Under the pieces are notes generated by a model, which was given only the letters and a program-made list of their open reading frames with translations, did no database searches and was not told the origin of the DNA. A stretch of 64,000 nucleotides of DNA from Candidatus Latescibacterota bacterium. Its GTDB lineage: Bacteria; Latescibacterota; CBDEFO01. Position numbers and translations under genes: made by a program. Below, one piece after another: positions 2,902 through 52,147 of the stretch. Numbering within the stretch: the first letter of the stretch is position 1; each line of letters starts with the position of its first letter. The stretch covers positions 32,001-96,000 of the forward strand of contig CBDEFO010000008.1 in NCBI GenBank assembly GCA_965237525.1. The letters run 5' to 3'.

Positions 2902-3388
2902 TGGTTATTAGTCATATGAAATCGGAACGCTTCCCTTTGGGCATTTGTATTGAGCTTGAATTATAGCGCTGTGCTGATCTCAGGCTCTTGGTGCTTTTCA
3001 AGATGGATGTATAACCCTTGTTCTTTTGGATTCCGTTCACCCACGAAAAAGCATTTGATGTAAGAGGAGTTAGGAAACACTTTCTCATCTAACACATCCC
3101 CGATAGAATCAATCGGGGATAAATGCTTTGTCTGTCTGTACCGTATCCTGTTGAACCTATATTTCAACATAGACTTGGAAAAAAATCTTGCTTCGTTTGG
3201 ATCCTTCTACTTGGGGGAGGGTAACCGTTGTATCGTTGGGATGCAGTTTAGACCATTGAAATCTCTGATACACTTCTTGTAGGCTTTCAAACCCGGTTCT
3301 GTTCCAGAATCTTCCAGAAAACTTAGAACTGCTGCCTTTACTATATGAACCCATGTCCAGCGTTCTGATTTCATCTGATATTTAACCG
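2902..3388 (-). mobile_element. Internally deleted, degenerate derivative of the IS at 12990-14293
   Basis: Both termini resemble the IRs of the 12990-14293 element. The interior translates to pieces of that transposase's C-terminus (FSGRFWNRTGFESLQEV versus FSRKFWNRIQFKSLQEV). Confidence 0.85.
3099..3117. repeat. 19-nt hairpin micro-element, copy A
   Basis: CCCGATAGAATCAATCGGG in ATC^GAT. The homologous position in the intact IS (14095-14100) reads ATCGAT. Confidence 0.9.
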
Positions 3389-3643: not shown

Positions 3644-4163
3644 ATGGACAGCTTGGGCAAGAATTGAATCTATCACAAGCCAGGTTGTCGTTTTCGGATT
3701 AGCACGCCCTACCTTTAACACATTTTCTCCTTCCGGTCATCAGAAATTCTGACTTTTCTTTGATTTTTCTCGCCTTTTGGAAAATTTCTCCCTTTACCCC
3801 TTCCTTGGCGGCACAAGCGGCAGGCGCAACTATAGCCAGAAGCCACGTGAGAGGAACAGCAGCACTGATTTGTTCTCTACAACACGAGGTGGATGACATG
3901 CACTGCCACCAACCCTCCGAGAGCGTCTTGCTATCGTAAGGGTTCTTGGCCTTGGACGTATGCAAAGAGGAGGGTCATGAGCGGAATATTAGAGATCACA
4001 ACTGCGCCGAGACCATCCGATACGCGGAGAAGAACCCGGTATTTGAATGCACGGTATGCCGCCAAGTTATGAGCCCCCAAGAGCGCCGCTCCCAGGAGAG
4101 CTTTGCCGCGAGACAGTGTAAGCTCCCGCGCTAGAACCATAAGCGTCCTTAGTGCTATTCTCT

Positions 4164-6149
4164 TCAGAAGACCCCGAGCGGATTGCCCCTCATCCCTGTG
4201 AAGTAATCTATCGTGAGCCACGTCGCTGCCACGACCATCTGCCCTAAGATCAGACCCAAAAAGAAAGGTCGAGTCTTTCTGAATACTGCAGCGCCGCCGT
4301 ACTTGATTATGATCACCTTGAAGAACCACGCCAAAAAGACATTAAGCCACATCTGATTTATTAAGTAAACGGGGCTGATTACGTAGCCGATGGGATGGAT
4401 AGGCCACCATATAAAGCGGTATCGGATAAAGCTCAAAAGGCCCATAACAGATGCCCCTATGCCGGTGGCTACCCATCCTCCGATGTTGGGAGTAAGGGCC
4501 CCTGCTACCCTTGAGGTTATGTAATCGAAGGGTTCTCGCGGAGCCCCGCCAAAAAACCAGGCGTAGAGGTTGATTCCGCCTTCCTGGTATGCCATGTTTA
4601 AGACCATCCACATCGATCCTGCCAGGCTCACAACGATGGAAAGCATCATCGCCCAGAAGAGCGGCCTTCTATTACCTACCACCACATTGATCAACTTGAG
4701 CCCGTTGGCGCACGAAGCCATAACAAACGTCCTCAACTCACCGTGCCAGGCGTGTGTGTACGCCAGCGCGACTAATCCTTTAGGTCCTAAAACTGTGGTC
4801 CCAAGCCCGGATACCACGAAGTCCGAACCCAGTATAGGCGGCCGCATATCAGGCATCCCTCCCTCTGATACTACACGGGTCATCCCTATAAAGATAACAA
4901 AGGCAACAAACACGAATATGGGGACGATCCAGAGGGGCATTCCGGTAGTCCACAGCCAAAAGCCTATAAAAAGGAGCCCTAAAACCATGCCAAAGAAAGC
5001 GGTCCGGTAAGATAGAATCTCGTCCGAGTCGTCCACGTTTGGGTCGTTCTTGAATGCCTTCCTGAGGACGCCCTTTAGGTGCTCCCGACCTGTCCACAGT
5101 CCTAACATGACAAAGACTATCATAGCTCCCATGCCCTGATGGAGCAGGTATGGTGACGAGGCCCAGGTGTAAGCATAGAGGCTCATTATCTGTGGGCTGT
5201 GGAAACCTATCATATTGAAAATGCCGTGCTCCACGTTGGACAGCAGGGAAAAGGACCAAATCGCAAGGGCGATGTCGCGGGGTATAAGATAGACGAATCC
5301 TATAATATGAAAACGGAGATCGAAATGAATGTTGATTGCGTTGCGAAACATGGACATATTGGCGAAAAGGTCTATATCTGGAACGAACGGATAGTACCCA
5401 TGGAGGGCATCTACACTGTCTATGACAAAAGGAATGGCAAATCCGAGCCACATAACGGGGCTTTTGAAAAATGGCGCAAGATAACCGCCTTTATCGTCCC
5501 TTATCATTTCCATAGGTGTCTGAATCAGCGGATAGATCACCCTCTCCCTCTCTACCCACTGCCTCCTTAAGATCACCATTATGCATATCATCACAAAATA
5601 AAGGACAATGGCAAAGGAAGACCAGTACAAAAGGGGCCTAATCCACATCCCCCAGGGTATCGTCTCTCCCTCAGGCAGACCTTCGTAGAAATACTTAATA
5701 TACTCTGGATCTCGAGGGGATATCCAGTCGGGGATATATGGATGGATCAGATTTACCCAGTCGTTCTCAGGGGTAGCAAAGTAGTATACACCCACGATTG
5801 CCGGAAGTAGGTGTTCGGTGAGACCTACAGCCACTATAGACGAAGCTACGATCATCATAATGTAGATCGTAACTAATTCGGTGGATTCAAACTCGATTCC
5901 CCTTTTGGTCAGCTTCAAAAGGGTGTTTACTATCCCTACGAAGATAAATAGAAGGAAGAGAGCTCCACCGGTGCTGAACGTACCAGCCATCCAGGAACCC
6001 ATGATCAGGGAATCGCTGTATGGGGCGGCTATGGATATAAAAAAGGAGAGCGCCGCTCCCACAACAAAAGATCTGACGGTAAAACGTCGAGGCGGTCTGT
6101 CCTGGCTAACGGTACGATCAGTCTTGAAATCCTCAGTCCTTGTCTCCAT
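4164..6149 (-). CDS. Polytopic membrane protein, DUF6785/DUF6784-like putative transporter (paralogue 1)
   Basis: 661 aa with many hydrophobic segments; motifs LRRQWVERER, WWPIHPIG and RPFFLGLILG. Confidence 0.8.
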   Translation of the reverse strand: METRTEDFKTDRTVSQDRPPRRFTVRSFVVGAALSFFISIAAPYSDSLIMGSWMAGTFSTGGALFLLFIFVGIVNTLLKLTKRGIEFESTELVTIYIMMIVASSIVAVGLTEHLLPAIVGVYYFATPENDWVNLIHPYIPDWISPRDPEYIKYFYEGLPEGETIPWGMWIRPLLYWSSFAIVLYFVMICIMVILRRQWVERERVIYPLIQTPMEMIRDDKGGYLAPFFKSPVMWLGFAIPFVIDSVDALHGYYPFVPDIDLFANMSMFRNAINIHFDLRFHIIGFVYLIPRDIALAIWSFSLLSNVEHGIFNMIGFHSPQIMSLYAYTWASSPYLLHQGMGAMIVFVMLGLWTGREHLKGVLRKAFKNDPNVDDSDEILSYRTAFFGMVLGLLFIGFWLWTTGMPLWIVPIFVFVAFVIFIGMTRVVSEGGMPDMRPPILGSDFVVSGLGTTVLGPKGLVALAYTHAWHGELRTFVMASCANGLKLINVVVGNRRPLFWAMMLSIVVSLAGSMWMVLNMAYQEGGINLYAWFFGGAPREPFDYITSRVAGALTPNIGGWVATGIGASVMGLLSFIRYRFIWWPIHPIGYVISPVYLINQMWLNVFLAWFFKVIIIKYGGAAVFRKTRPFFLGLILGQMVVAATWLTIDYFTGMRGNPLGVF

Positions 6150-6248: not shown

Positions 6249-8234
6249 TCAAAATTGCCCGAACGAATTGCCCCTCATCCCTGTGAAGTAATCTATCGTG
6301 AGCCACGTCGCTGCCACGACCATCTGTCCTAAGATCAGACCCAAAAAGAAGGGTCGAGTCTTTCTGAATACTCCAGCGCCGCCGTATTTGAGTATGACTA
6401 CCTTGAAGAACCACGCCAAAAATACGCTAAGCCACACCTGATTTATTAAGAACACGGGGCTGATTACATAGCCGATGGGATGGATAGGCCACCATATAAA
6501 GCGGTATCGGATAAAGATCAAAAGGCCCATAACAGATGCCCCTATGCCGGTGGCTATCCATCCTCCGATGTTGGGAGTAAGGGCCCCTGCTACCCTTGAG
6601 GTTATGTAATCGAAGGGTTCTCGCGGAGCCCCGCCAAAAAACCAGGCGTAGAGGTTGATTCCGCCTTCCTGGTATGCCATGTTTAAGACCATCCACATCG
6701 ATCCTGCCAGGCTCACGACGATGGAAAGCATCATCGCCCAGAAGAGCGGTCTTCTATTACCTACCACCACATTGATCAACTTGAGCCCGTTGGCGCACGA
6801 AGCCATAACAAACGTCCTCAACTCACCGTGCCATACGTGTGTGTACGCCAGCGCGACTAATCCTTTAGGTCCTAAAACTGTGGTCCCAAGCCCGGATACC
6901 ACGAAGTCCGAACCCAGTATAGGCGGCCGCATATCAGGCATCCCTCCCTCTGATACTACACGGGTCATCCCTATAAAGATAACAAAGGCAACAAACACGA
7001 ATATGGGGACGATCCAGAGGGGCATTCCGGTAGTCCACAGCCAAAAGCCTATAAAAAGGAGCCCTAAAACCATGCCAAAGAAAGCGGTCCGGTAAGATAG
7101 AATCTCGTCCGAGTCGTCCACGTTTGGGTCGTTCTTGAATGCCTTCCTCAGAACGCCCTTTAGGTGCTCCCGACCTGTCCACAGTCCTAACATGACAAAG
7201 ACTATTATAGCTCCCATGCCCTGATGGAGCAGGTACGGTGACGAGGCCCAGGTGTAAGCATAGAGGCTCATTATCTGTGAGCTGTGGAAACCTATCATAT
7301 TGAAAATTCCGTGCTCCACGTTGGCCAGTAGAGAGAAGGACCAAATCGCAAGGGCGATGTCGCGGGGTATAAGATAGACGAATCCAACAACATAAAAGCG
7401 GAGATCGAAGATAATCCGAGTTGTGTTGTGAAGTATGAACATGCTAGTGGAAAGGTCAATATCCGGAACGAACGGGTAGTAGCGATGGAAAGCCTTTGCG
7501 CTGTCTATGAAAAAAGGGATGGCAAATCCAAGCCACATAACTGGATTTTTGAAAAATGGCGCAAGGTAACCACTCTTATCGTCCCTTATCATTTCCATAG
7601 GCGTCTGAATCATCGGATAGATCACCCTCTCCCTCTCTACCCACTGCCTCCTTAAAATCACCATCATGCATATCATCACAAAATAAAGGACAATCGCAAA
7701 CGAAGACCAGTACAAAAGTGGCCCCATCCACATCCCCCAGGGTATCGTCTCTCCCTCAGGCAGACCTTCGTAGAAATATCTAATGTACTCTGGATCTCGA
7801 GGGGATATCCACTCGGGGATATATGGATGGATCAGATTTACCCAGTCGTTCTCAGGGGTAGCGTAGTAGAATACACCGGCGCTGGCAGGAAGGAGGTGTT
7901 CGGTGAGACCTACGGCCACTATGGACGAAGCTACGATCATCATAATGTAGATCATAACTAATTCGGTGACTTCAAACTCGATTCCCCTTCTGATCAGCTT
8001 CAAAGGGGGGTTTACTATCGCTACGAGAATAAATAAAAGGAAGATTGCTCCACCGGTGCTGAAGGCGCCAGCCATCCAGGAGCTCATGATAACGGAATCG
8101 CCGTATGGTGCGGCTATGGATATGAAAAAGGAGAGCGCTGCTCCTACAACAAAAGATCTGACGGTAAATCGTCGTGGTGGTCTCTCCTTCTTAACGGCAT
8201 AATCGGTATTGAAATCCGTAGCTCTTATCTCCAT
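6249..8234 (-). CDS. Polytopic membrane protein, DUF6785/DUF6784-like putative transporter (paralogue 2)
   Basis: 661 aa tandem paralogue of 4164-6149 (offset 2085 bp). Confidence 0.8.
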   Translation of the reverse strand: MEIRATDFNTDYAVKKERPPRRFTVRSFVVGAALSFFISIAAPYGDSVIMSSWMAGAFSTGGAIFLLFILVAIVNPPLKLIRRGIEFEVTELVMIYIMMIVASSIVAVGLTEHLLPASAGVFYYATPENDWVNLIHPYIPEWISPRDPEYIRYFYEGLPEGETIPWGMWMGPLLYWSSFAIVLYFVMICMMVILRRQWVERERVIYPMIQTPMEMIRDDKSGYLAPFFKNPVMWLGFAIPFFIDSAKAFHRYYPFVPDIDLSTSMFILHNTTRIIFDLRFYVVGFVYLIPRDIALAIWSFSLLANVEHGIFNMIGFHSSQIMSLYAYTWASSPYLLHQGMGAIIVFVMLGLWTGREHLKGVLRKAFKNDPNVDDSDEILSYRTAFFGMVLGLLFIGFWLWTTGMPLWIVPIFVFVAFVIFIGMTRVVSEGGMPDMRPPILGSDFVVSGLGTTVLGPKGLVALAYTHVWHGELRTFVMASCANGLKLINVVVGNRRPLFWAMMLSIVVSLAGSMWMVLNMAYQEGGINLYAWFFGGAPREPFDYITSRVAGALTPNIGGWIATGIGASVMGLLIFIRYRFIWWPIHPIGYVISPVFLINQVWLSVFLAWFFKVVILKYGGAGVFRKTRPFFLGLILGQMVVAATWLTIDYFTGMRGNSFGQF

Positions 8235-12989: not shown

Positions 12990-14293
12990 CGGTTGAATAT
13001 CAAATGAAATCGGTGCACCTAATTTGATCTTTGTTTAGAGTATTAGTAGATTAAGTTGAGTTGATTGTCTTAACTTTAATCTACGGAGTCCTATGGACAA
13101 AGAGAGATTGGCCGTATTAAGACAAGAAGTCAACGAGATGTATTTTAAGAAAGAAATGTCAAAGCGAGAAGTTATCAAACAAGCGAGAGTTTCCAATGAT
13201 TTCGTTACAGCTTGGACTAAATCTCCGGATCAGGATTTTGCCATAGATAATCGGGGTTGGCCAAAAGGAAAAAGGCGAAAATTGGCTAAAGTTGACGAAC
13301 AGAGAATCAAAGAGATTTACCATAGCTTAGAGGACGATCCTTATCAGTTCTATTCAGGAGCCACTGTTATTGAACAAGAATGGAGGAATCGATATTCTAG
13401 CACCCCTCCTCCGTCGTTGCCGACTATCGGCAGAATGCTTTCAGATTTAGGACTTTCCCAGAGAAGGAAGAAAGGTAAAAACAAGGGTGCATCTCGTTAT
13501 CTTTGTTATCCAGAGTATACCATTTACTATCTTTCAGGAGGCAGAGTCCTAGAATCAGACTTTATTGGTAAAAAGTATCTTACCGGCAGAACTGAGCCGG
13601 TCAACTTCGTTGGATTTTCCTTTAAGAAAGAGCCTAAGTTAAGGTATTTTCGGCGGGTTGACGGTCAAACAGCAACTAACTTTATCGAGAAGTGTCAGTC
13701 TTTCTTTGACAGGTTTGAAAAACCAGATTTCGTTAAGGTGGACAATTGCTCGGCGACTATTGGCAGTGTTTCAGGTAAAAGGAATGTCAGCAAAGCAATG
13801 CAGTTTCTCTTGAAAAATCAAGTGATTCCGATATTTGCCGTTCCCAGAAGGCCCTTTTCTCAAGCATCTATAGAAGGCAACAATTCTGTATTTTCAAGGA
13901 AGTTCTGGAACAGAATTCAGTTCAAAAGCTTACAAGAAGTTGATCAGAAGTTAGAATGGTTTAATCTTTCATCACAGAGATACACCGGCTACCGTCCACC
14001 TAAGCAAGAGAAGTCAAACGAGAAAGATTTCATTCCCAAGACCTATTTTATCAGACAAGTCAAACAGGACACAGAACAGACAGATAAAGCCTTTATCGAT
14101 GTCCTAAATGAGAAAGTATCTCTTCCCTCCTCTTACACCAACTACTTTGTCCTGGCTGAATGGAACCTAAAAGAAGAACAATTATACATCCATTTTGAAA
14201 AAGAACAGAAACCAAAGATTGTCGAAAACCTATCATTCAAGATCAATCAAAGATCGAAAGAGAAGTGCACCGATTTCATTTGATAAATAACCC
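12990..14293 (+). mobile_element. Complete IS, family unassigned (rve/IS481-like DDE), TTAA target
   Basis: 29-bp imperfect IRs with a perfect inner core TATCAAATGAAATCGGTGCAC. TTAA at 12986-12989 and 14294-14297. Confidence 0.88.
13093..14283 (+). CDS. DDE transposase with integrase-core-like domain
   Basis: N-terminal HTH-like region; candidate triad ESDF / KVDN / SIEG. The stop codon lies inside the right IR. Confidence 0.8.
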   Translation: MDKERLAVLRQEVNEMYFKKEMSKREVIKQARVSNDFVTAWTKSPDQDFAIDNRGWPKGKRRKLAKVDEQRIKEIYHSLEDDPYQFYSGATVIEQEWRNRYSSTPPPSLPTIGRMLSDLGLSQRRKKGKNKGASRYLCYPEYTIYYLSGGRVLESDFIGKKYLTGRTEPVNFVGFSFKKEPKLRYFRRVDGQTATNFIEKCQSFFDRFEKPDFVKVDNCSATIGSVSGKRNVSKAMQFLLKNQVIPIFAVPRRPFSQASIEGNNSVFSRKFWNRIQFKSLQEVDQKLEWFNLSSQRYTGYRPPKQEKSNEKDFIPKTYFIRQVKQDTEQTDKAFIDVLNEKVSLPSSYTNYFVLAEWNLKEEQLYIHFEKEQKPKIVENLSFKINQRSKEKCTDFI

Positions 14294-23991: not shown

Positions 23992-24010
23992 CGCGATAGA
24001 ATCAATCGGG
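23992..24010. repeat. 19-nt hairpin micro-element, copy B
   Basis: CGCGATAGAATCAATCGGG in TTC^GAT. Confidence 0.85.
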
Positions 24011-25919: not shown

Positions 25920-25950
25920 GCCGATAGAATCAATGATAGAATCAATCGGG
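25920..25950. repeat. Hairpin micro-element, copy C (12-nt internal duplication)
   Basis: GCC-GATAGAATCAAT-GATAGAATCAAT-CGGG in TTC^GAT. Confidence 0.85.
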
Positions 25951-44855: not shown

Positions 44856-44865
44856 GGAACCTTAT

Positions 44866-44940
44866 GTAGGGGCAATCCCCGATTGACTCTATCGGGGGTC
44901 GGGGACTACTCGCCTCAAGGGCAGGGAACCGTGCCCCTAC
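44866..44940. repeat. GTAG-type REP-like palindrome carrying micro-element copy D (44878-44903)
   Basis: GTAGGGGCA...TGCCCCTAC ends; inside, ATC^CCCGATTGACTCTATCGGG-GGTCGGG^GAC. Confidence 0.7.
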
Positions 44941-44992
44941 GATAGCTTATTGAGGAAATTGGAATGATTGAAGAATAAACCCTCCCGATAGC

Positions 44993-45467
44993 ATGCGATT
45001 TAGCAGAACAATAAAGCTTAATAAGAATCTGTCCCAAGCGTCAGATCTTGTGCGCAGATATTTTACAGAAGAAGGATACAGCCTCAAACAAGAGTCGGAA
45101 GGAAGCTATATCTTCGAGCGCGGGAAAAGATGGGTGTCACTATACACCTTCAGAATAGAGAAGTGTCACACTCTCCTGAACGCTGAGCTTGAAGAGATAG
45201 ACACCAATTCTACAAAATGCACTCTTTCGTATAAGGTACAGTCCCCGATTGAATCTATCGGGGATCGGACAGATTATCTTGAAGCTCGACAGGGAATTCT
45301 GGGAATATGAATTGAATAACTTGATCTCTTTTGTGGAAGGCGGCAAAAGAGCTGAGGAGAAACATGAGTTCAATCAATACAGAAGGCGGAGGGTCGTCGG
45401 ATGGATATTGAAGTACGGCACCATTCCCGGTGTAGTGATAGGCATAATCAGTGTCAAAGGCTGCTGA
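44993..45467 (+). pseudogene. Hypothetical membrane protein split by micro-element copy E (45244-45262)
   Basis: Deleting the 19 nt joins ORFs 44993-45310 and 45249-45467 in frame (SYKVQSIGQIILKLD). Confidence 0.8.
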
Positions 45468-45556: not shown

Positions 45557-45594
45557 CCCGATTGACCCCCCGATTGAATCTACTGGGGGTCGGG
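45557..45594. repeat. Nested pair of 19-nt micro-elements (copy F)
   Basis: 38 nt = outer CCCGATTGACCC^GGTCGGG plus inner CCCGATTGAATCTACTGGG (45569-45587); outer site GTC^GAG. Confidence 0.75.
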
Positions 45595-45605
45595 GAGACG
45601 ATAAC

Positions 45606-45681
45606 GGCGCATTCGTCCAGTGGCCCAGGACGCTGGCCTCTCACGCCAGAAACAGGGGTTCGACTCCCCTATGCGCCACCA
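45606..45681 (+). tRNA. tRNA-Glu (CTC)
   Basis: Acceptor stem GGCGCAT/ATGCGCC, anticodon arm CTGGC-CT-CTC-AC-GCCAG, GGTTCGACTCC T-arm, encoded CCA. Confidence 0.97.
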
Positions 45682-46936: not shown

Positions 46937-48076
46937 CTATTCAAAACCGTATACTTTCACATGATTACCATTGCGATAGAATAACTCAGGCACCGCATCA
47001 CCTATTAGATTGCCGAGCAGAAGATAATTCTTCATAGTTGGATTACGTGCAAAATCCTCAGGCATCGAGATATAACGATCAAAGACGAATGTCCCATTTT
47101 CCCACTCAAAGCACCAGACTCCACTTCCAAGGGGTTCATCATCCTTGTAATATCTATAACCACTTGCTACCAATTCAATTCGTCCATCTCGGTCAACATC
47201 TCCCGCACCGTGTAAACGACCAGCCCCGGCATGTAAGAATCGCTCAAAGTGCCAGGACGTATCTCGGACAAGGTAATAGAAACTGGCAGAGTCACCATAG
47301 GGGCCAGAAATAACGATCTCATCGGCTTTATCGTTATTGAAGTCCGCTGTCACGACTGTAGGATGAAAAGAGAGGAATGCAAAGTCAACCTCCGCAATCT
47401 TGATAAACTGCTCCTCGTGACGAAACAAGACAAATTTATAGCGTTCGCCAATGGTACCGGGTGTGATCTTAACAGATGAAATGAAGCCGATCAGAAACAA
47501 CGTCCCGGAAGGATCCTGTAAAATATTTACAGTTCGGATGGGAAGTCCTGTGTTTCCCGGAGAAAAGTAGGTGTATCTTGTTCCGCTGCCAAAGTTGCAG
47601 GACGTCAGATCTCGCCCTTGCCCAGTCCAAATACCCAATTTATGACACGCAAAGTCATAGACATCTCTCAGTTCGCATTTCTCATACGTGGTGACTTGAC
47701 GGAACGTGTCACCGTCCCAGGTATAGCCAGCCGGATGTCCATCGAATCCCATCAAGTGAGTTTGTTGCCCGCCATCTACGTAGACAATATCATCCTTTTG
47801 ATCGTGGTTTATATTTCCCAGTTTAACGAGCCTATTGTTCGCATATTTTGATGGAAGAGGACGCTCAGAAATAAGATTGAAATCAAGTTCGCCCTCCCAG
47901 AGAAGCTTTACAGGCACGGGTTCATTTGCACCGCTCCCGGGTGTCACGTTCAGAAACAAACTTAAGACTGACAGAACTTTAATCAGTTGATAGCGGATTT
48001 TTCTCAAAATGTAGACTCCCTTTTTTCTTCTCAATATTCTCGTCCCCACCGATTTGTTCGACCCATCTGCCTCCAT
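46937..48076 (-). CDS. Exported FG-GAP/VCBS-repeat protein
   Basis: GNINHDQKDDI, ADFNNDKADEI, GDVDRDGRIEL and GNLIGDAVPEL. Start likely downstream of 48076. Confidence 0.75.
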   Translation of the reverse strand: MEADGSNKSVGTRILRRKKGVYILRKIRYQLIKVLSVLSLFLNVTPGSGANEPVPVKLLWEGELDFNLISERPLPSKYANNRLVKLGNINHDQKDDIVYVDGGQQTHLMGFDGHPAGYTWDGDTFRQVTTYEKCELRDVYDFACHKLGIWTGQGRDLTSCNFGSGTRYTYFSPGNTGLPIRTVNILQDPSGTLFLIGFISSVKITPGTIGERYKFVLFRHEEQFIKIAEVDFAFLSFHPTVVTADFNNDKADEIVISGPYGDSASFYYLVRDTSWHFERFLHAGAGRLHGAGDVDRDGRIELVASGYRYYKDDEPLGSGVWCFEWENGTFVFDRYISMPEDFARNPTMKNYLLLGNLIGDAVPELFYRNGNHVKVYGFE

Positions 48077-48480
48077 CCGATATAGGACTGGATAGCGTAA
48101 CTCTCAAAGTTAGGTAACTTTATCTGCAAGCATCCAGTACTCGGACTTATCATGAGTCTGTACTTCGTTTTTTGATAGCTGAGCAGATTTTATCCTTTCT
48201 ATTTCCTTCTTTAGGGACAATGTCTTCCTTCCCGTTGACCCGACAGCGTTTCAGGAAAGCTTCCATAACGTCACATCAAAAACGTTTACAGGCATCTCGT
48301 GGCCGATCCAGTGCTGCGGCCTATAGATCACAGTGTAGCCGTTGCGGTGGCCGAAGTACGGTTGCGGGCGTCGTCGGGTAGCGTTGACTCGTAATGCTTG
48401 CTTGGCTCTTATCCTGGACTTTCCACTTAATCTTTAAACTCACCAACCTGTTATCGACGAAAAGCAAGCTGATACATCAT

Positions 48481-49596
48481 TTAGCCAATCTGAGTCAATA
48501 CCTCTTTACATCGTTCGGCCACAATCCGTTCCTGCCCAGGCCGGAGTGTGTGAGGGTTTATCACAATGCTGTCCTGAGTAAAGTGTTGACCAACGACAAT
48601 ACTCGGTTCGCCCTCTTGTAACGCCTCTGCTATCATCTCTAGGGTGAGGCCAGCGTCTGCCTCCGGGCGGATGTAGAGCATCGGCACCCTATACGTCTCC
48701 CCTTTGGTGAAACGGCCTACCTCTACATGCGGGACACCCTTCAACGCTTCTTCGATATAGTCCCTTTGAGCCGCCCAGCGAACGCTATCGGCCTCGTGAT
48801 CTCGCGCCAGATACAGTTCCAGGGCCTTCAGAAATCCGATGATCTCCTCCCTGCTCACCTTCATAGGGCGACCGACTGTGGCGAATGGGTTGCCGTTGGC
48901 AGCGCACGCTGCAATGAGGTCTTTGCGACCGATGATCATCCCGGTGGATTGCGGTCCCATGATGCTCTTACCACCACTGAAGATAACAAGATCGACACCT
49001 GCCCGCCAGAAACGCGTCAGGGTGGAGACCGGAGGACACTCCGAGGCTGTATCCACAATTACCGGCACGGATGCAGCCCCGGCCATGGCCACGACCTGAT
49101 CCAACGGCACTGAGGTTGGATGGTCCATGACGTTGGCCATGTAGAAGATGGCCGCTGTGTTCTCATTGATGGCATGGTACATCGCCTCAGTTGGTGGTGT
49201 CCCTTGATCATCAATCTCAATCAGAGTCGCCCCAGCCAGACGAATCGCCTGATCATAAGCAATTCGGTGCGCCTTCTGGATGATGACTTCATGCTTCATA
49301 CCGGTCGTATCAGGCAATTGTTCAATCTTAACCGGGTCGTTCCCGGCCATACAGGCAGCGGTGGTCAACACCAAACCACAGGCCGCGCCCGCCGTCACAT
49401 ACGCGGCCTCTACCTCAAGCATGGCGGAGATCTTTTGGCCGACCCTCTCGTGCAACTCGTCCAAAAAACAGAACTCTTGGGATGCTTGGCGCATACTCTC
49501 CAATACTTCGGGAGCCATAAGGGAACCGCCGTACCGGGTGACAGTCCCAGCTGCATTGATTAGCGTGCGCACGCCTAATTCCTCATAAATGCTCAT
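48481..49596 (-). CDS. SelA-like / DgaE-family PLP-dependent enzyme
   Basis: INAAGTVTRYGGS, VIVDTA, IFSGGKSIMGPQSTG and GRPMKVSREE motifs. Confidence 0.85.
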   Translation of the reverse strand: MSIYEELGVRTLINAAGTVTRYGGSLMAPEVLESMRQASQEFCFLDELHERVGQKISAMLEVEAAYVTAGAACGLVLTTAACMAGNDPVKIEQLPDTTGMKHEVIIQKAHRIAYDQAIRLAGATLIEIDDQGTPPTEAMYHAINENTAAIFYMANVMDHPTSVPLDQVVAMAGAASVPVIVDTASECPPVSTLTRFWRAGVDLVIFSGGKSIMGPQSTGMIIGRKDLIAACAANGNPFATVGRPMKVSREEIIGFLKALELYLARDHEADSVRWAAQRDYIEEALKGVPHVEVGRFTKGETYRVPMLYIRPEADAGLTLEMIAEALQEGEPSIVVGQHFTQDSIVINPHTLRPGQERIVAERCKEVLTQIG

Positions 49597-49818
49597 AGCT
49601 GGGTCTTCCTCCTCCCTGGGCGTGATTCTTGAGAATGCCAGGGGATGCGAGAATCACAGTGAGGTATTAGTACAGCCTACTATATGGAGTTTGACAAGCA
49701 TAACGACCAAGCTGGCTGGCGGCGATGGAGTGCCAGCCGAATCCCCGTCCACTCCAGCGCCTTGTCAGGATGGATTAGTAACAATCCTTTGTACTGCCCC
49801 CCAGGAAAGCGACACCAA

Positions 49819-50720
49819 TTAAGCGACCTGGGGTAGTAGATAAAATTGTTTTCTCCACTCTTCCGGGGTCTTATATCCCAGGGATGAATGAAGCCTGTTC
49901 TTGTTGTAATTATCGATCCACTGAGATATGATCTTCTCAGCCTGTTCAAAGGATTCAAACTTGTGAAGCCAAACACACTCTTGCTTGAGGGTCCTGAAAA
50001 AACGCTCTACAACACCGTTCCAATCGGGATTACCACTTGGTATGTATTCCTGACGAATTCCCCAATATTCGGTACTTGCCAAATAGGTCCGAGACAAAAA
50101 GATGGAGCCGTTGTCAGAGCGAAAAGTGAGACCCTGGGGGACAGCCTCCTTGGAAGTGTATCGAGAGATCACGGCCCGATCCAGGGCATCTGTGGCCTCC
50201 AGTGCCCTCCCTTTTCGACTAAAACGATACCCGGGAACCTCCCGACTCCCGTTGTCCACCACCGCAATAAGAGGACACCAACCGTCTTCCCCACAATAGA
50301 CCTTGGTCAAGTCAGCCGACCAGAGACTGTCAGGACGATCCATCACAGAACGCTTCTGGGCAACCTGTGGCCCCTTTCTCCCGGGGTCCCCGATTGATTC
50401 TATCGGGGATTCCACAGCTTACACTGCCACCCCTTAAGCTTCATTATCCTATGAACCTTCTTGATGCTGACACATTCCCCTTCCTTGAAACGAAGATGCG
50501 CCCAAACCCGCCTGTGACCAAATGCCTCTTCTTGGTCGAGTATCCCTCGAACACGAAAAGCAAGCTGTTCATCTATCACAGACTCTTCGACAGAAGAACT
50601 GACACCTCTATACCTAAGCCTATACAGAGTCGAACGATGCAAACCCAAAGCCAAAGCTACCACCTTACGGGAATAGCCTCGACCCAAAAACCGCCCACTC
50701 AAGGCAACCGCTTCGTTTTT
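49819..50720 (-). pseudogene. IS3 orfB (DDE), interrupted by micro-element copy G (50389-50407)
   Basis: GHRRV, WSADLT, RSDNGS, VERFFRTLKQE and HSSLGY motifs; the element introduces a TAG and a frameshift. Confidence 0.85.
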
Positions 50721-51027
50721 TTAGACGGGCTACCTCCTCGAGTATCTCCAACTGGAGGGTTAACTGCCCTACCTTACGCTCCAACCGGCTGACCTCCCAC
50801 TCCTTCGGATCCTTGCGACCACGCCGAGACTTCAGACTCTCCTGCCCTCCTTCCAGGAAACTATCACGCCAGGCATACGCCTGTGACTGGCTAATTCCAT
50901 TCTTCCGACACACCTCTGATACATTCGCTCCTTTCAAAACAGCCAACACCACCTCTACCTTACGGGTCGCCGTCCAGCGCTTACCATCTTTCACTTCGGG
51001 GCTTGACAATTTGACCTCCCTTCTCAA
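50665..51027 (-). CDS. IS3 orfA (HTH)
   Basis: KRWTATRKVEVV...VSEVCRKNGIS...W, followed by a leucine-zipper-like segment. Confidence 0.85.
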   Translation of the reverse strand: MRREVKLSSPEVKDGKRWTATRKVEVVLAVLKGANVSEVCRKNGISQSQAYAWRDSFLEGGQESLKSRRGRKDPKEWEVSRLERKVGQLTLQLEILEEVARLKKRSGCLEWAVFGSRLFP

Positions 51028-51292
51028 ACCCCAATTTGCGAAATATTTGTCGCTCTGTCAAGGGGAGCGGTATGTTACGATCGGAGCCCCACCAATTTCA
51101 ACTAAAAATAGGACTTGACCTATGAGATCATGCGTGAGAGTTATCAGGATAACAGGCAAAGGTGGGATGAGGTCCTCAACATGGAAGAGGTGATCCTACA
51201 CATCTACAAAAAATTCTGACATACTTGCATCGATTTCAGAATTGTGCTACATCATGATACCTAAATCGGCAAACGTGGAACCTCTACATATA

Positions 51293-52147
51293 TTACTCAG
51301 AATTCACAGGGCTCTGTGCCTCGTTTTTTGATTTCTGGGCAGATCTTATCTGTTCTATCGCCTTCTGTGCTGCAATCCTATTAACATATCTATCTTCACC
51401 ATATACAGATCTGACCCATGAATCCTGCTTTACGATTTGCTCCAAAATGGGGATAGTCGAGGCATCACCAAAGTGTACTAATCCGCCGATAGCTATGTTC
51501 CTTATAATACCATTCTTGTCTCCTAAAAGGTCTACAAAACAGCTCCGGATATTGTCCTTTTCCTCTTTCGTAAAAAAAGAAGGATCTAGCTTATCCATGC
51601 GGCGAAGCGTTCCTTTAGCTCCTATTTTCATGAGATCTTGGGTACTGCCTAGCGAATCAATAATATCTGGCACTACGGAGTGCCTAATAGCCAACATACC
51701 TTCGGCAGGTGATCCTTGAGACAATACCTTAAGTAAAACGGATTTGGAGCCCTCGTCACCTATTTTGTTCAATAACCATATGATATTATCTAAGACTTCG
51801 TCGTACACTTCATATGAAGTCTCTTCTGAAGGTATTTTTAGTATTTCGTTGGCTCTGTATATTAACGCAGGCGCAGCAACCCTCACCGCCTCTTTTCCCT
51901 CTTTTCGAAAAAGAACATGCAATTTAGCAACCACACATTCTGCAGAGAAAATATCGCCGTGTTTGATTACTTGGGCATCATCATCTGAGAAGGACCAGCC
52001 TTTCAGATCAGGTAAGGTTGATTTCTTCTGAGCATTCAGGTTAGTAGGAAACCAAAGAATAGCGTAAAGACCTACAATTATGCCTATGAAGAATAAAAGC
52101 AGTAGCGTTTCAAAGTCAGTATTCCCGTTTGCTTTGCTTTGAGTCAA
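51293..52147 (-). CDS. Membrane-anchored HEAT/PBS-lyase repeat-like protein
   Basis: N-terminal TM segment; LLGDKNGIIRNIAIGGLVHFGD...IPILE and NRIAAQKAIEQI. Confidence 0.65.
   Translation of the reverse strand: MTQSKANGNTDFETLLLLFFIGIIVGLYAILWFPTNLNAQKKSTLPDLKGWSFSDDDAQVIKHGDIFSAECVVAKLHVLFRKEGKEAVRVAAPALIYRANEILKIPSEETSYEVYDEVLDNIIWLLNKIGDEGSKSVLLKVLSQGSPAEGMLAIRHSVVPDIIDSLGSTQDLMKIGAKGTLRRMDKLDPSFFTKEEKDNIRSCFVDLLGDKNGIIRNIAIGGLVHFGDASTIPILEQIVKQDSWVRSVYGEDRYVNRIAAQKAIEQIRSAQKSKNEAQSPVNSE

Follow-up and report, generated by a model that had tools for sequence, protein, structure and literature searches.

A 19-nt hairpin inserted into a transposase relic belongs to a family of very small repeats that appear to come and go between two Latescibacterota genomes

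How does a 19-nt hairpin come to lie between two adjacent nucleotides of a transposase remnant? Very short palindromic repeats are common in bacteria, but to our knowledge it has rarely been proved directly that existing DNA gained a unit of about 20 nt. The locus considered here lies in a 64,000-nt stretch of DNA (the window) from a Candidatus Latescibacterota bacterium, whose genome, G000, comprises 4.58 Mb in 8 contigs at 49% G+C. On the minus strand of the window the 19-nt block CCCGATTGATTCTATCGGG (positions 3099-3117; arms and loop CCCGAT-TGATTCT-ATCGGG) sits exactly between the C and the G of ...TTTATC/GATGT..., where the slash marks the point of insertion here and below, such that positions 3130 to 3093 read CAAAGCATTTATC-CCCGATTGATTCTATCGGG-GATGTG and the sequence downstream of the insert continues GATGTGTTAGATGAG. 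In an intact insertion sequence (IS) of the same window the site is uninterrupted and reads AAAGCCTTTATC-GATGTC on the plus strand, with the C at 14097, the G at 14098 and the continuation GATGTCCTAAATGAG. The first-pass annotation of this DNA had described the insert as 19 nt between this C and this G and as an addition to pre-existing sequence, and both statements are borne out. MAFFT alignment of the reverse complement of 2902-3388 with 12990-14293 opens a single 19-column gap exactly at 14097/14098, and an ungapped scan of all positions places the gap there as the unique optimum, with 16 mismatches against 17 one base either way. The aligned segments are homologous (blastn, 70.3% identity over 448 columns, E 2.4e-48).

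Which of the two states came first? The empty site, ATC/GAT at the centre of the palindrome ATCGAT, falls between transposase codons I335 and D336, and the surrounding motif (K)AFIDVLNEK is unbroken in 13 of 13 aligned homologues (61-70% identity). Moreover, the sequence on either side of the insert still encodes ...TDKAFI and DVLDEK..., in frames offset by 19 nt. The rationale for treating the empty state as ancestral is based on these two observations, and the alignments confirm, as far as sequence comparison reaches, that the 19 nt were added to pre-existing sequence without target duplication.

What is the sequence that carries the hairpin? The intact IS (12991-14292, plus strand, ~1302 bp with ends placed to within 1 nt) has 28-nt inverted repeats, GGTTGAATATCAAATGAAATCGGTGCAC, flanking 4-6-nt direct repeats of the type NTAN, an ORF and multiple copies. 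Its 396-aa transposase ORF (13093-14283, plus strand) has 865 homologues in public data at E up to 1e-5 and no Pfam match, and its matches to NCBIfam models are weak, of IS481/IS21 type and below cut-off (42 bits for the IS481 model vs 224 required). The carrier (2903-3387, minus strand) is 485 bp long and joins the left inverted repeat to IS positions ~880-1303, the last ~425 nt, which comprise the 3' end of the transposase gene and the right inverted repeat. For this reason it is best described as a MITE-like internal-deletion derivative: both IS terminal inverted repeats are present, the interior is deleted, and no transposase or other intact ORF remains, with stop codons in all frames. The first-pass annotation had called it a decayed derivative of the intact IS, and this description does not hold. 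A congeneric sister genome, G001, has the orthologue of this relic in the same place, with 93% identity and with the hairpin inserted, and contains three IS fragments but no full-length IS, whereas G000 has 49 near-full-length copies at ≥98% identity, of which the intact IS is one. Because a genome without a full-length IS holds the filled orthologous relic, the relics are remains of an earlier invasion, and the set of 49 near-identical copies represents a recent burst in G000. The G000 set of IS copies thus points to a recent burst or acquisition, and the carrier is, on these comparisons, evidently a relic of an older relative of the IS.

Was this one site filled once? Among the 55 BLAST segments that span it in G000, 52 are empty, comprising the 49 near-full-length copies at ≥98% identity and three partial ones at ≥99.8%. 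The remaining three are filled relics, located at 2903-3387 of the window, at C8:1336344-1336076 and at C3:106719-106992 (contigs C8 and C3), and an empty relic lies at C8:1567509-1567440. The state of the site thus varies between copies, and the single pair first compared is insufficient to describe it. The most direct case is the C8:1336k relic. Its surroundings (G000 C8:1337415-1334576) align collinearly with G001 locus L140 over 2851 nt at 93.4% identity, and only the G000 copy is filled: the G001 orthologue lacks the hairpin, and the alignment places a unique gap of 19 nt at this same ATC/GAT. A maximum-likelihood tree built on the 189 nt downstream of the site separates the window relic of G000 and G001, both filled, from a group holding the empty IS, the filled C3:106k relic, and a subgroup in which the empty C8:1566k relic stands beside the pair formed by the filled C8:1336k relic of G000 and its empty G001 orthologue. 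On this tree the state must have changed at least three times at one nucleotide position, either by three gains or by one gain and precise losses, and we infer that the three filled relics reflect repeated hits on the site or precise excision from some copies. All three share the loop TGATTCT, a minority variant found in 31 of 306 perfect-stem copies in G000 (~10%, both orientations), which favors common descent, or copying from one paralogue to another, over independent hits from the general pool. Gene conversion was considered as the origin of the filled C8:1336k relic and set aside, given that no donor-specific substitutions flank the hairpin in comparison with C3:106k; a tract shorter than ~30 nt is possible.

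The tree also bears on the opposite direction of change, in which the 19 nt would be ancestral to the IS and precisely deleted in the lineage of the intact IS, so that the window pair would record a loss. One gain followed by three precise losses comes within one event of three gains, but we regard this account as highly improbable because the motif is contiguous in every aligned homologue and the insert would shift the reading frame. In addition, the empty alleles of other events differ from the filled ones in flanking bases (AC vs GTC) and are for this reason not simple excision products. In metagenome contigs the junction of ATC, hairpin and GATGT (26 specified bases) had no match, and in Logan contigs of four public runs (X1, X3, X4 and X6), which drop rare variants, the sites at 3099-3117 and 45244-45262 were found in the filled form only.

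What kind of sequence is the insert? Together with the target ATC/GAT pair it forms a 25-nt hairpin (3096-3120, minus strand) with a 9-bp stem and a 7-nt loop, whose DNA fold of -8.6 kcal/mol (z -4.68) is matched in stability by none of 200 shuffles; the empty site folds at 0 kcal/mol. It belongs to a family with the consensus CCCGAT-TGANTCT-ATCGGG, mostly extended to YC...GR, that is the commonest short repeat of G000: the hairpin 14-mers head the list for the genome outside long repeats, which occupy ~13% of it (595 kb). At up to three mismatches the window holds seven distinct sites, compared with none expected from 100 shuffles. At up to two mismatches the 19-mer matches G000 284 times forward and 284 times in reverse, with none for a reversed control, and 527 copies are counted at this threshold. 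Perfect 6-bp arms enclosing a 7-nt loop occur in 306 copies, against 0-21 for other loop lengths.

Both the loop and the stem are conserved in ways that depend on position. In the loop TGANTCT the N is most often A, followed by G, T and C in that order, and the four positions left free by the search are 92-98% conserved (the flanking T's being fixed by the orientation rule and N excluded). The left flank reads R-Y-C and the right flank G-R, with C at -1 in 93% and G at +1 in 94% of copies, and their conservation fades gradually across -1, -2 and -3. Positions -2 and +2 co-vary, with TA in 195 and CG in 124 of 402 copies against TG in 28 and CA in 24, and the functional unit is therefore ~23 nt long, including a stem of 8 bp. 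Among 426 copies the inner G-C pair shows 32 compensated doubles (23 A-T and 9 T-A) as against 10 wobble and 30 mismatched pairs. These compensated changes indicate that the paired stem matters. When genes are approximated by a crude ORF call, intergenic DNA makes up ~18% of the genome but holds 228 of the 317 copies outside long repeats (72%), an enrichment that has the pattern of a selfish element. The same call gave no orientation bias of non-repeat copies relative to neighboring genes. Orientation showed no pattern with GC skew, itself noisy, along the G000 contigs; in G001 118 copies are forward and 88 reverse. A scan against Rfam assigned no family to the hairpin, and its sole match above threshold was a tRNA.

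If these hairpins move, closely related genomes should differ in them, and G001, whose orthologous regions are ~94% identical (1.2 of 4.5 Mb compared), provides the comparison. An orthologous G001 site could be assigned for 140 G000 copies, of which 69 are filled in both genomes, 44 are lacking or altered in G001 and 27 are ambiguous; the reverse comparison covers 101 G001 copies whose orthologous position in G000 could be assigned: 74 of these positions are also filled, at 22 the hairpin is missing or altered, and 5 are ambiguous. The two genomes thus differ in about one quarter to one third of the copies. Gapped parsing further identified, for 98 G000 copies, a paralogous site without the hairpin. 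Clean delimitation was possible for 31 events, whose alleles differ in size by 19 nt (11 events), 18 nt (6), 27 nt (6), 21 nt (4), 20 nt (3) and 15 nt (1). In all six clean +19 events the empty allele has C/G at the junction (ATC/GAT, ACC/GGT, ATC/GAC, CTC/GAA, CTC/GAT and GAC/GAT), and five of the six lie at the centre of TCGA or CCGG. These events show a preference for C/G in YC/GR tetranucleotides, and no target duplication was seen at insertions. In other events a 23-nt unit substitutes ~4 target nt, as in GC/GT to CC[19]GG, TAATC/GAGA to TAACC[19]GGGA and GAC/GA to GGTC[19]GA, where [19] stands for the inserted block. Nested events place the new copy in the loop of an older one (GATTGAN/NCTA/TCGGGG) whose outer copy is intact in the other genome. 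Two of these, one in each genome, involve the same compensated variant CCCAAT...ATTGGG, which speaks for variant master copies as the source.

Copies of a 27-nt variant, CCTGTCCCCGAATGANTCTATCGGGGG, cluster at C8:739000-753000 of G000, some of them in tandem, and show clean 27-nt presence or absence relative to G001. Variants of 27 nt correspond to nine codons and may be in-frame insertions in coding DNA.

The window itself contains six further copies. The copy at 45244-45262 (plus strand) reads GTC[19]GAT, and its G001 orthologue is empty (GAC/GAT). It breaks an ORF at 44993-45467 (plus strand) into pieces at 44993-45310 and 45249-45467, and since G001 has a single uninterrupted 151-aa ORF at this locus, the direction of change is fixed a second time. 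The genome comparison shows, at the level of sequence, hairpins that evidently come and go between genomes and break genes; annotators should bear in mind that a 19-nt hairpin can put a gene, including one for a transposase, out of frame. The copy at 44878-44896 (plus strand, event C8_76878) lies within a 27-nt block missing from G001, in the loop of a GTAG-headed palindrome. A nested or composite copy at 45569-45587 (plus strand), present in both genomes, lies ~20 nt upstream of a tRNA-Glu(CTC) gene at 45606-45681. The copy at 50389-50407 (plus strand) is a passenger in another IS family, at 49789-51077, among whose paralogues both empty (GGGAC/GATT) and filled (GGGGTC[19]GATT) forms exist. 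On the minus strand, a copy with one mismatch (23992-24010) lies in a flank repeated at 25932, and the copy there (25932-25950) has a duplicated 3' half-arm.

Several other features of the window were noted in passing. The GTAG-headed palindromes form a family of their own (GTAGGGGCGAGGT.TACTCGCC ... GCCCCTAC; window 44865-44945 and the C8:1336k and C3:106k relics) that is a target for the small hairpin, and in one relic the small hairpin replaces the palindrome loop. The IS at 49789-51077, with many G001 copies at 92-96% identity, is held within 48023-51985, ~4 kb missing from the collinear G001 region. An ORF at 322-1722 encodes a DUF772/DDE_Tnp_1 (IS5-like) transposase with related G001 copies at 88-98% identity, and tandem 661-aa DUF6785 + DUF6784 genes (4164-6149 and 6249-8234) recur as a pair in G001 at 84-86% identity.

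By what means would such a unit spread? We hypothesize, with about equal measures of confidence and doubt, that the hairpin family is a non-autonomous, very small mobile element moved in trans, as a folded single strand, by a hypothetical hairpin-specific enzyme. A protein of this kind would recognize the hairpin and its loop, movement would be copy-like and proceed from variant master copies, and a copy of the genome-wide 19-23-nt hairpin would in this manner have entered between the C and G of ATCGAT in the transposase remnant of the relic. We favor a hairpin-specific enzyme because the loop is conserved, the stem has to be paired, and the copies are scattered over unlinked sites and over several phyla. 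Against it stand the empty state of all 52 young IS copies and the filled-only contigs of the four public runs, in which ongoing movement was not directly observed.

The main rival is replication template switching without a dedicated enzyme, in which a nascent strand ending in ...YC jumps to another copy of the hairpin, is extended through it and returns via microhomology at GR; acting between paralogous relics, it would be equivalent to very short-patch gene conversion. Fuzzy boundaries, with inserts of 15-27 nt and fading flanks, would fit template copying better than a transposase cut, and the replacement of ~4 target nt by the YC...GR ends of a donor, the common half-arm duplications and nested forms, the T loop variant and homologous flanks shared by the three filled relics, and the lack of any enzyme in our searches all agree with it. 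A generic replication error, on the other hand, should amplify any hairpin, and what is found is an exact 19-mer with a conserved loop at hundreds of unlinked loci and across phyla. One clean 27-nt insertion (event C8_750956) occurred without microhomology, and no conversion tract is seen at C8:1336k relative to C3:106k. We consider template switching rather doubtful, and a hairpin-specific enzyme remains the reading that we prefer.

Could the mover be one that is already known? REP and REPIN sequences, mobilized by RAYT proteins, are short, abundant, mostly extragenic palindromes that act as non-autonomous mobile DNA (Bertels and Rainey 2011, PMC3116915). The present hairpin resembles them as a short, high-copy (306-527 copies), mainly extragenic (72% intergenic) palindrome; it differs in its shorter unit, in occurring as singlets instead of inverted doublets and in the absence of a RAYT gene. 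Six-frame searches for PF01797 (Y1_Tnp) gave no match in G000 or in G001, whereas control genomes matched. None of the 527 copies has a GTAG head at its left or its right end, and among 35 neighbor pairs within 100 nt in the same 527 copies 29 are direct and 6 inverted, contrary to the doublet arrangement of REPINs. The same 19-mer occurs elsewhere: among the matches listed, exact copies with the same RYC...GRY extension are found in Deltaproteobacteria-labelled MAGs (at least 18, at least 6 and at least 2 copies), as well as in one Thermodesulfobacteriota MAG and elsewhere, while none of the 39 other same-phylum genomes searched contains it. Hairpin-bearing Deltaproteobacteria-labelled MAGs do contain Y1_Tnp genes (10, 4 and 1 matches), which together with the lack of target duplication speaks for an ordinary REP/REPIN system whose RAYT is too divergent to detect or was recently lost. 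None of eight Y1-transposase loci in these MAGs has a hairpin at up to three mismatches within ~1.5 kb, and such a system is improbable; with no Y1_Tnp in G000 and G001 and no hairpin at the eight loci, a RAYT/Y1 link is rejected for these two genomes.

IS200/IS605 elements, which move by 'peel and paste', recognize hairpins, generate no target duplication, use a short specific target alongside the element and excise seamlessly. Seamless excision would explain the empty orthologues, but G000 and G001 lack a Y1 transposase and a single hairpin has no separate left and right ends.

For the families without a RAYT, namely the cyanobacterial small dispersed repeats (SDRs) and the CGTC-tagged REPs, we know of no mover, and in the case of SDRs of no enzyme. 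SDRs, described by Elhai and colleagues in 2008, are reportedly units of ~21-27 nt that form hairpins with compensatory changes, nest in one another and reside in mini-transposons; SDR1-8 are said to be confined to Nostocaceae, and movement through an RNA intermediate is reported to have been proposed. The present family answers to this description, being a hairpin of 19-27 nt with 32 compensated doubles and -2/+2 co-variation, with nested events around an intact outer copy and an insert (3099-3117) resident in a MITE-like relic. By description, then, it is similar in its dispersed ~20-27-nt units, compensated hairpins, nesting and mini-transposon residence, and in the short-palindrome target of one SDR family. 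It differs in its hosts, which are a Latescibacterota lineage and Deltaproteobacteria-labelled MAGs instead of cyanobacteria, and in a smaller modal net insert of 19 nt. A cyanobacterial origin or a HIP1 target was considered and rejected, as HIP1 is not enriched (57 vs ~70 expected). An SDR-type element moving via RNA would account for the size, hairpin, self-nesting and residence, but mispairs at -2/+2 are without strand asymmetry (T-G 28 vs C-A 24), no gene-orientation bias is seen and no Rfam family matches, so that movement through RNA is, in our estimate, slightly less credible still than a concealed RAYT. The palindromic target has its counterpart in SDR5, which inserts in a palindromic octamer (PMC5861425).

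CGTC-tagged REPs carry an unpaired terminal CGTC, TGTC or CCTC tag on an 8-9-bp stem that starts with A-T and encloses a loop of 4-5 nt, and include Neisseria dRS3 and Rickettsia RPE-4 and RPE-6 (Di Nocera et al. 2013, PMC3733652). The likeness lies in 8-9-bp stems, no known dedicated transposase, some copies in genes and occurrence in several phyla (PMC3733652). In the present hairpin, by contrast, the tag nucleotides are paired (-2,-1 with +1,+2), the loop has 7 nt, the stem starts with Y-R and C-G, and head-to-head dimers are rare. Over both ends of the 527 copies the tags number CGTC 10, TGTC 63 and CCTC 17 (90 of 1054 ends), and membership in this group is not supported.

A gene family shared beside the hairpins might reveal the mover. 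Three low-copy genomes, two Deltaproteobacteria-labelled MAGs and a single-copy Pleurocapsa-labelled MAG, were used for this purpose, and comparison of 31 ORFs at nine loci with Pfam gave no shared family; most of the neighbors are housekeeping genes unrelated to one another, and one is a small HTH ORF. It is possible, and we put it forward tentatively, that the 19-23-nt hairpin represents a class of mobile DNA in its own right, smaller than any so far described: inserting site-specifically at YC/GR, commonly at the middle of a short palindrome or in the loop of a pre-existing copy, capable of precise exit, independent of RAYT, transferred between bacterial phyla and served by a family of enzymes that has yet to be connected with transposition. 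The G000/G001 hairpin system is tractable for finding the mechanism, as it offers a filled and empty pair resolved to the codon, a gain or loss between orthologues at that exact nucleotide, an interrupted gene from which the direction of change can be read, a defined YC/GR target, and two genomes ~94% identical that differ in many of their copies.

Two copies in other genomes lie in or beside genes. In MAG H14-bin053_1 (Deltaproteobacteria-labelled; locus L143, position 4001-4019) an exact copy lies inside an unbroken 727-aa RelA/SpoT ORF (HD_4, RelA_SpoT, TGS and ACT domains), and since this ORF is uninterrupted the hairpin is evidently tolerated in frame there. At locus L149 of genome G043 a copy (position 658-676) lies in the 10-nt gap between a 159-aa HTH_28/29/32 ORF and a 162-aa ORF without a family, and the pair may be another transposase split by the hairpin.
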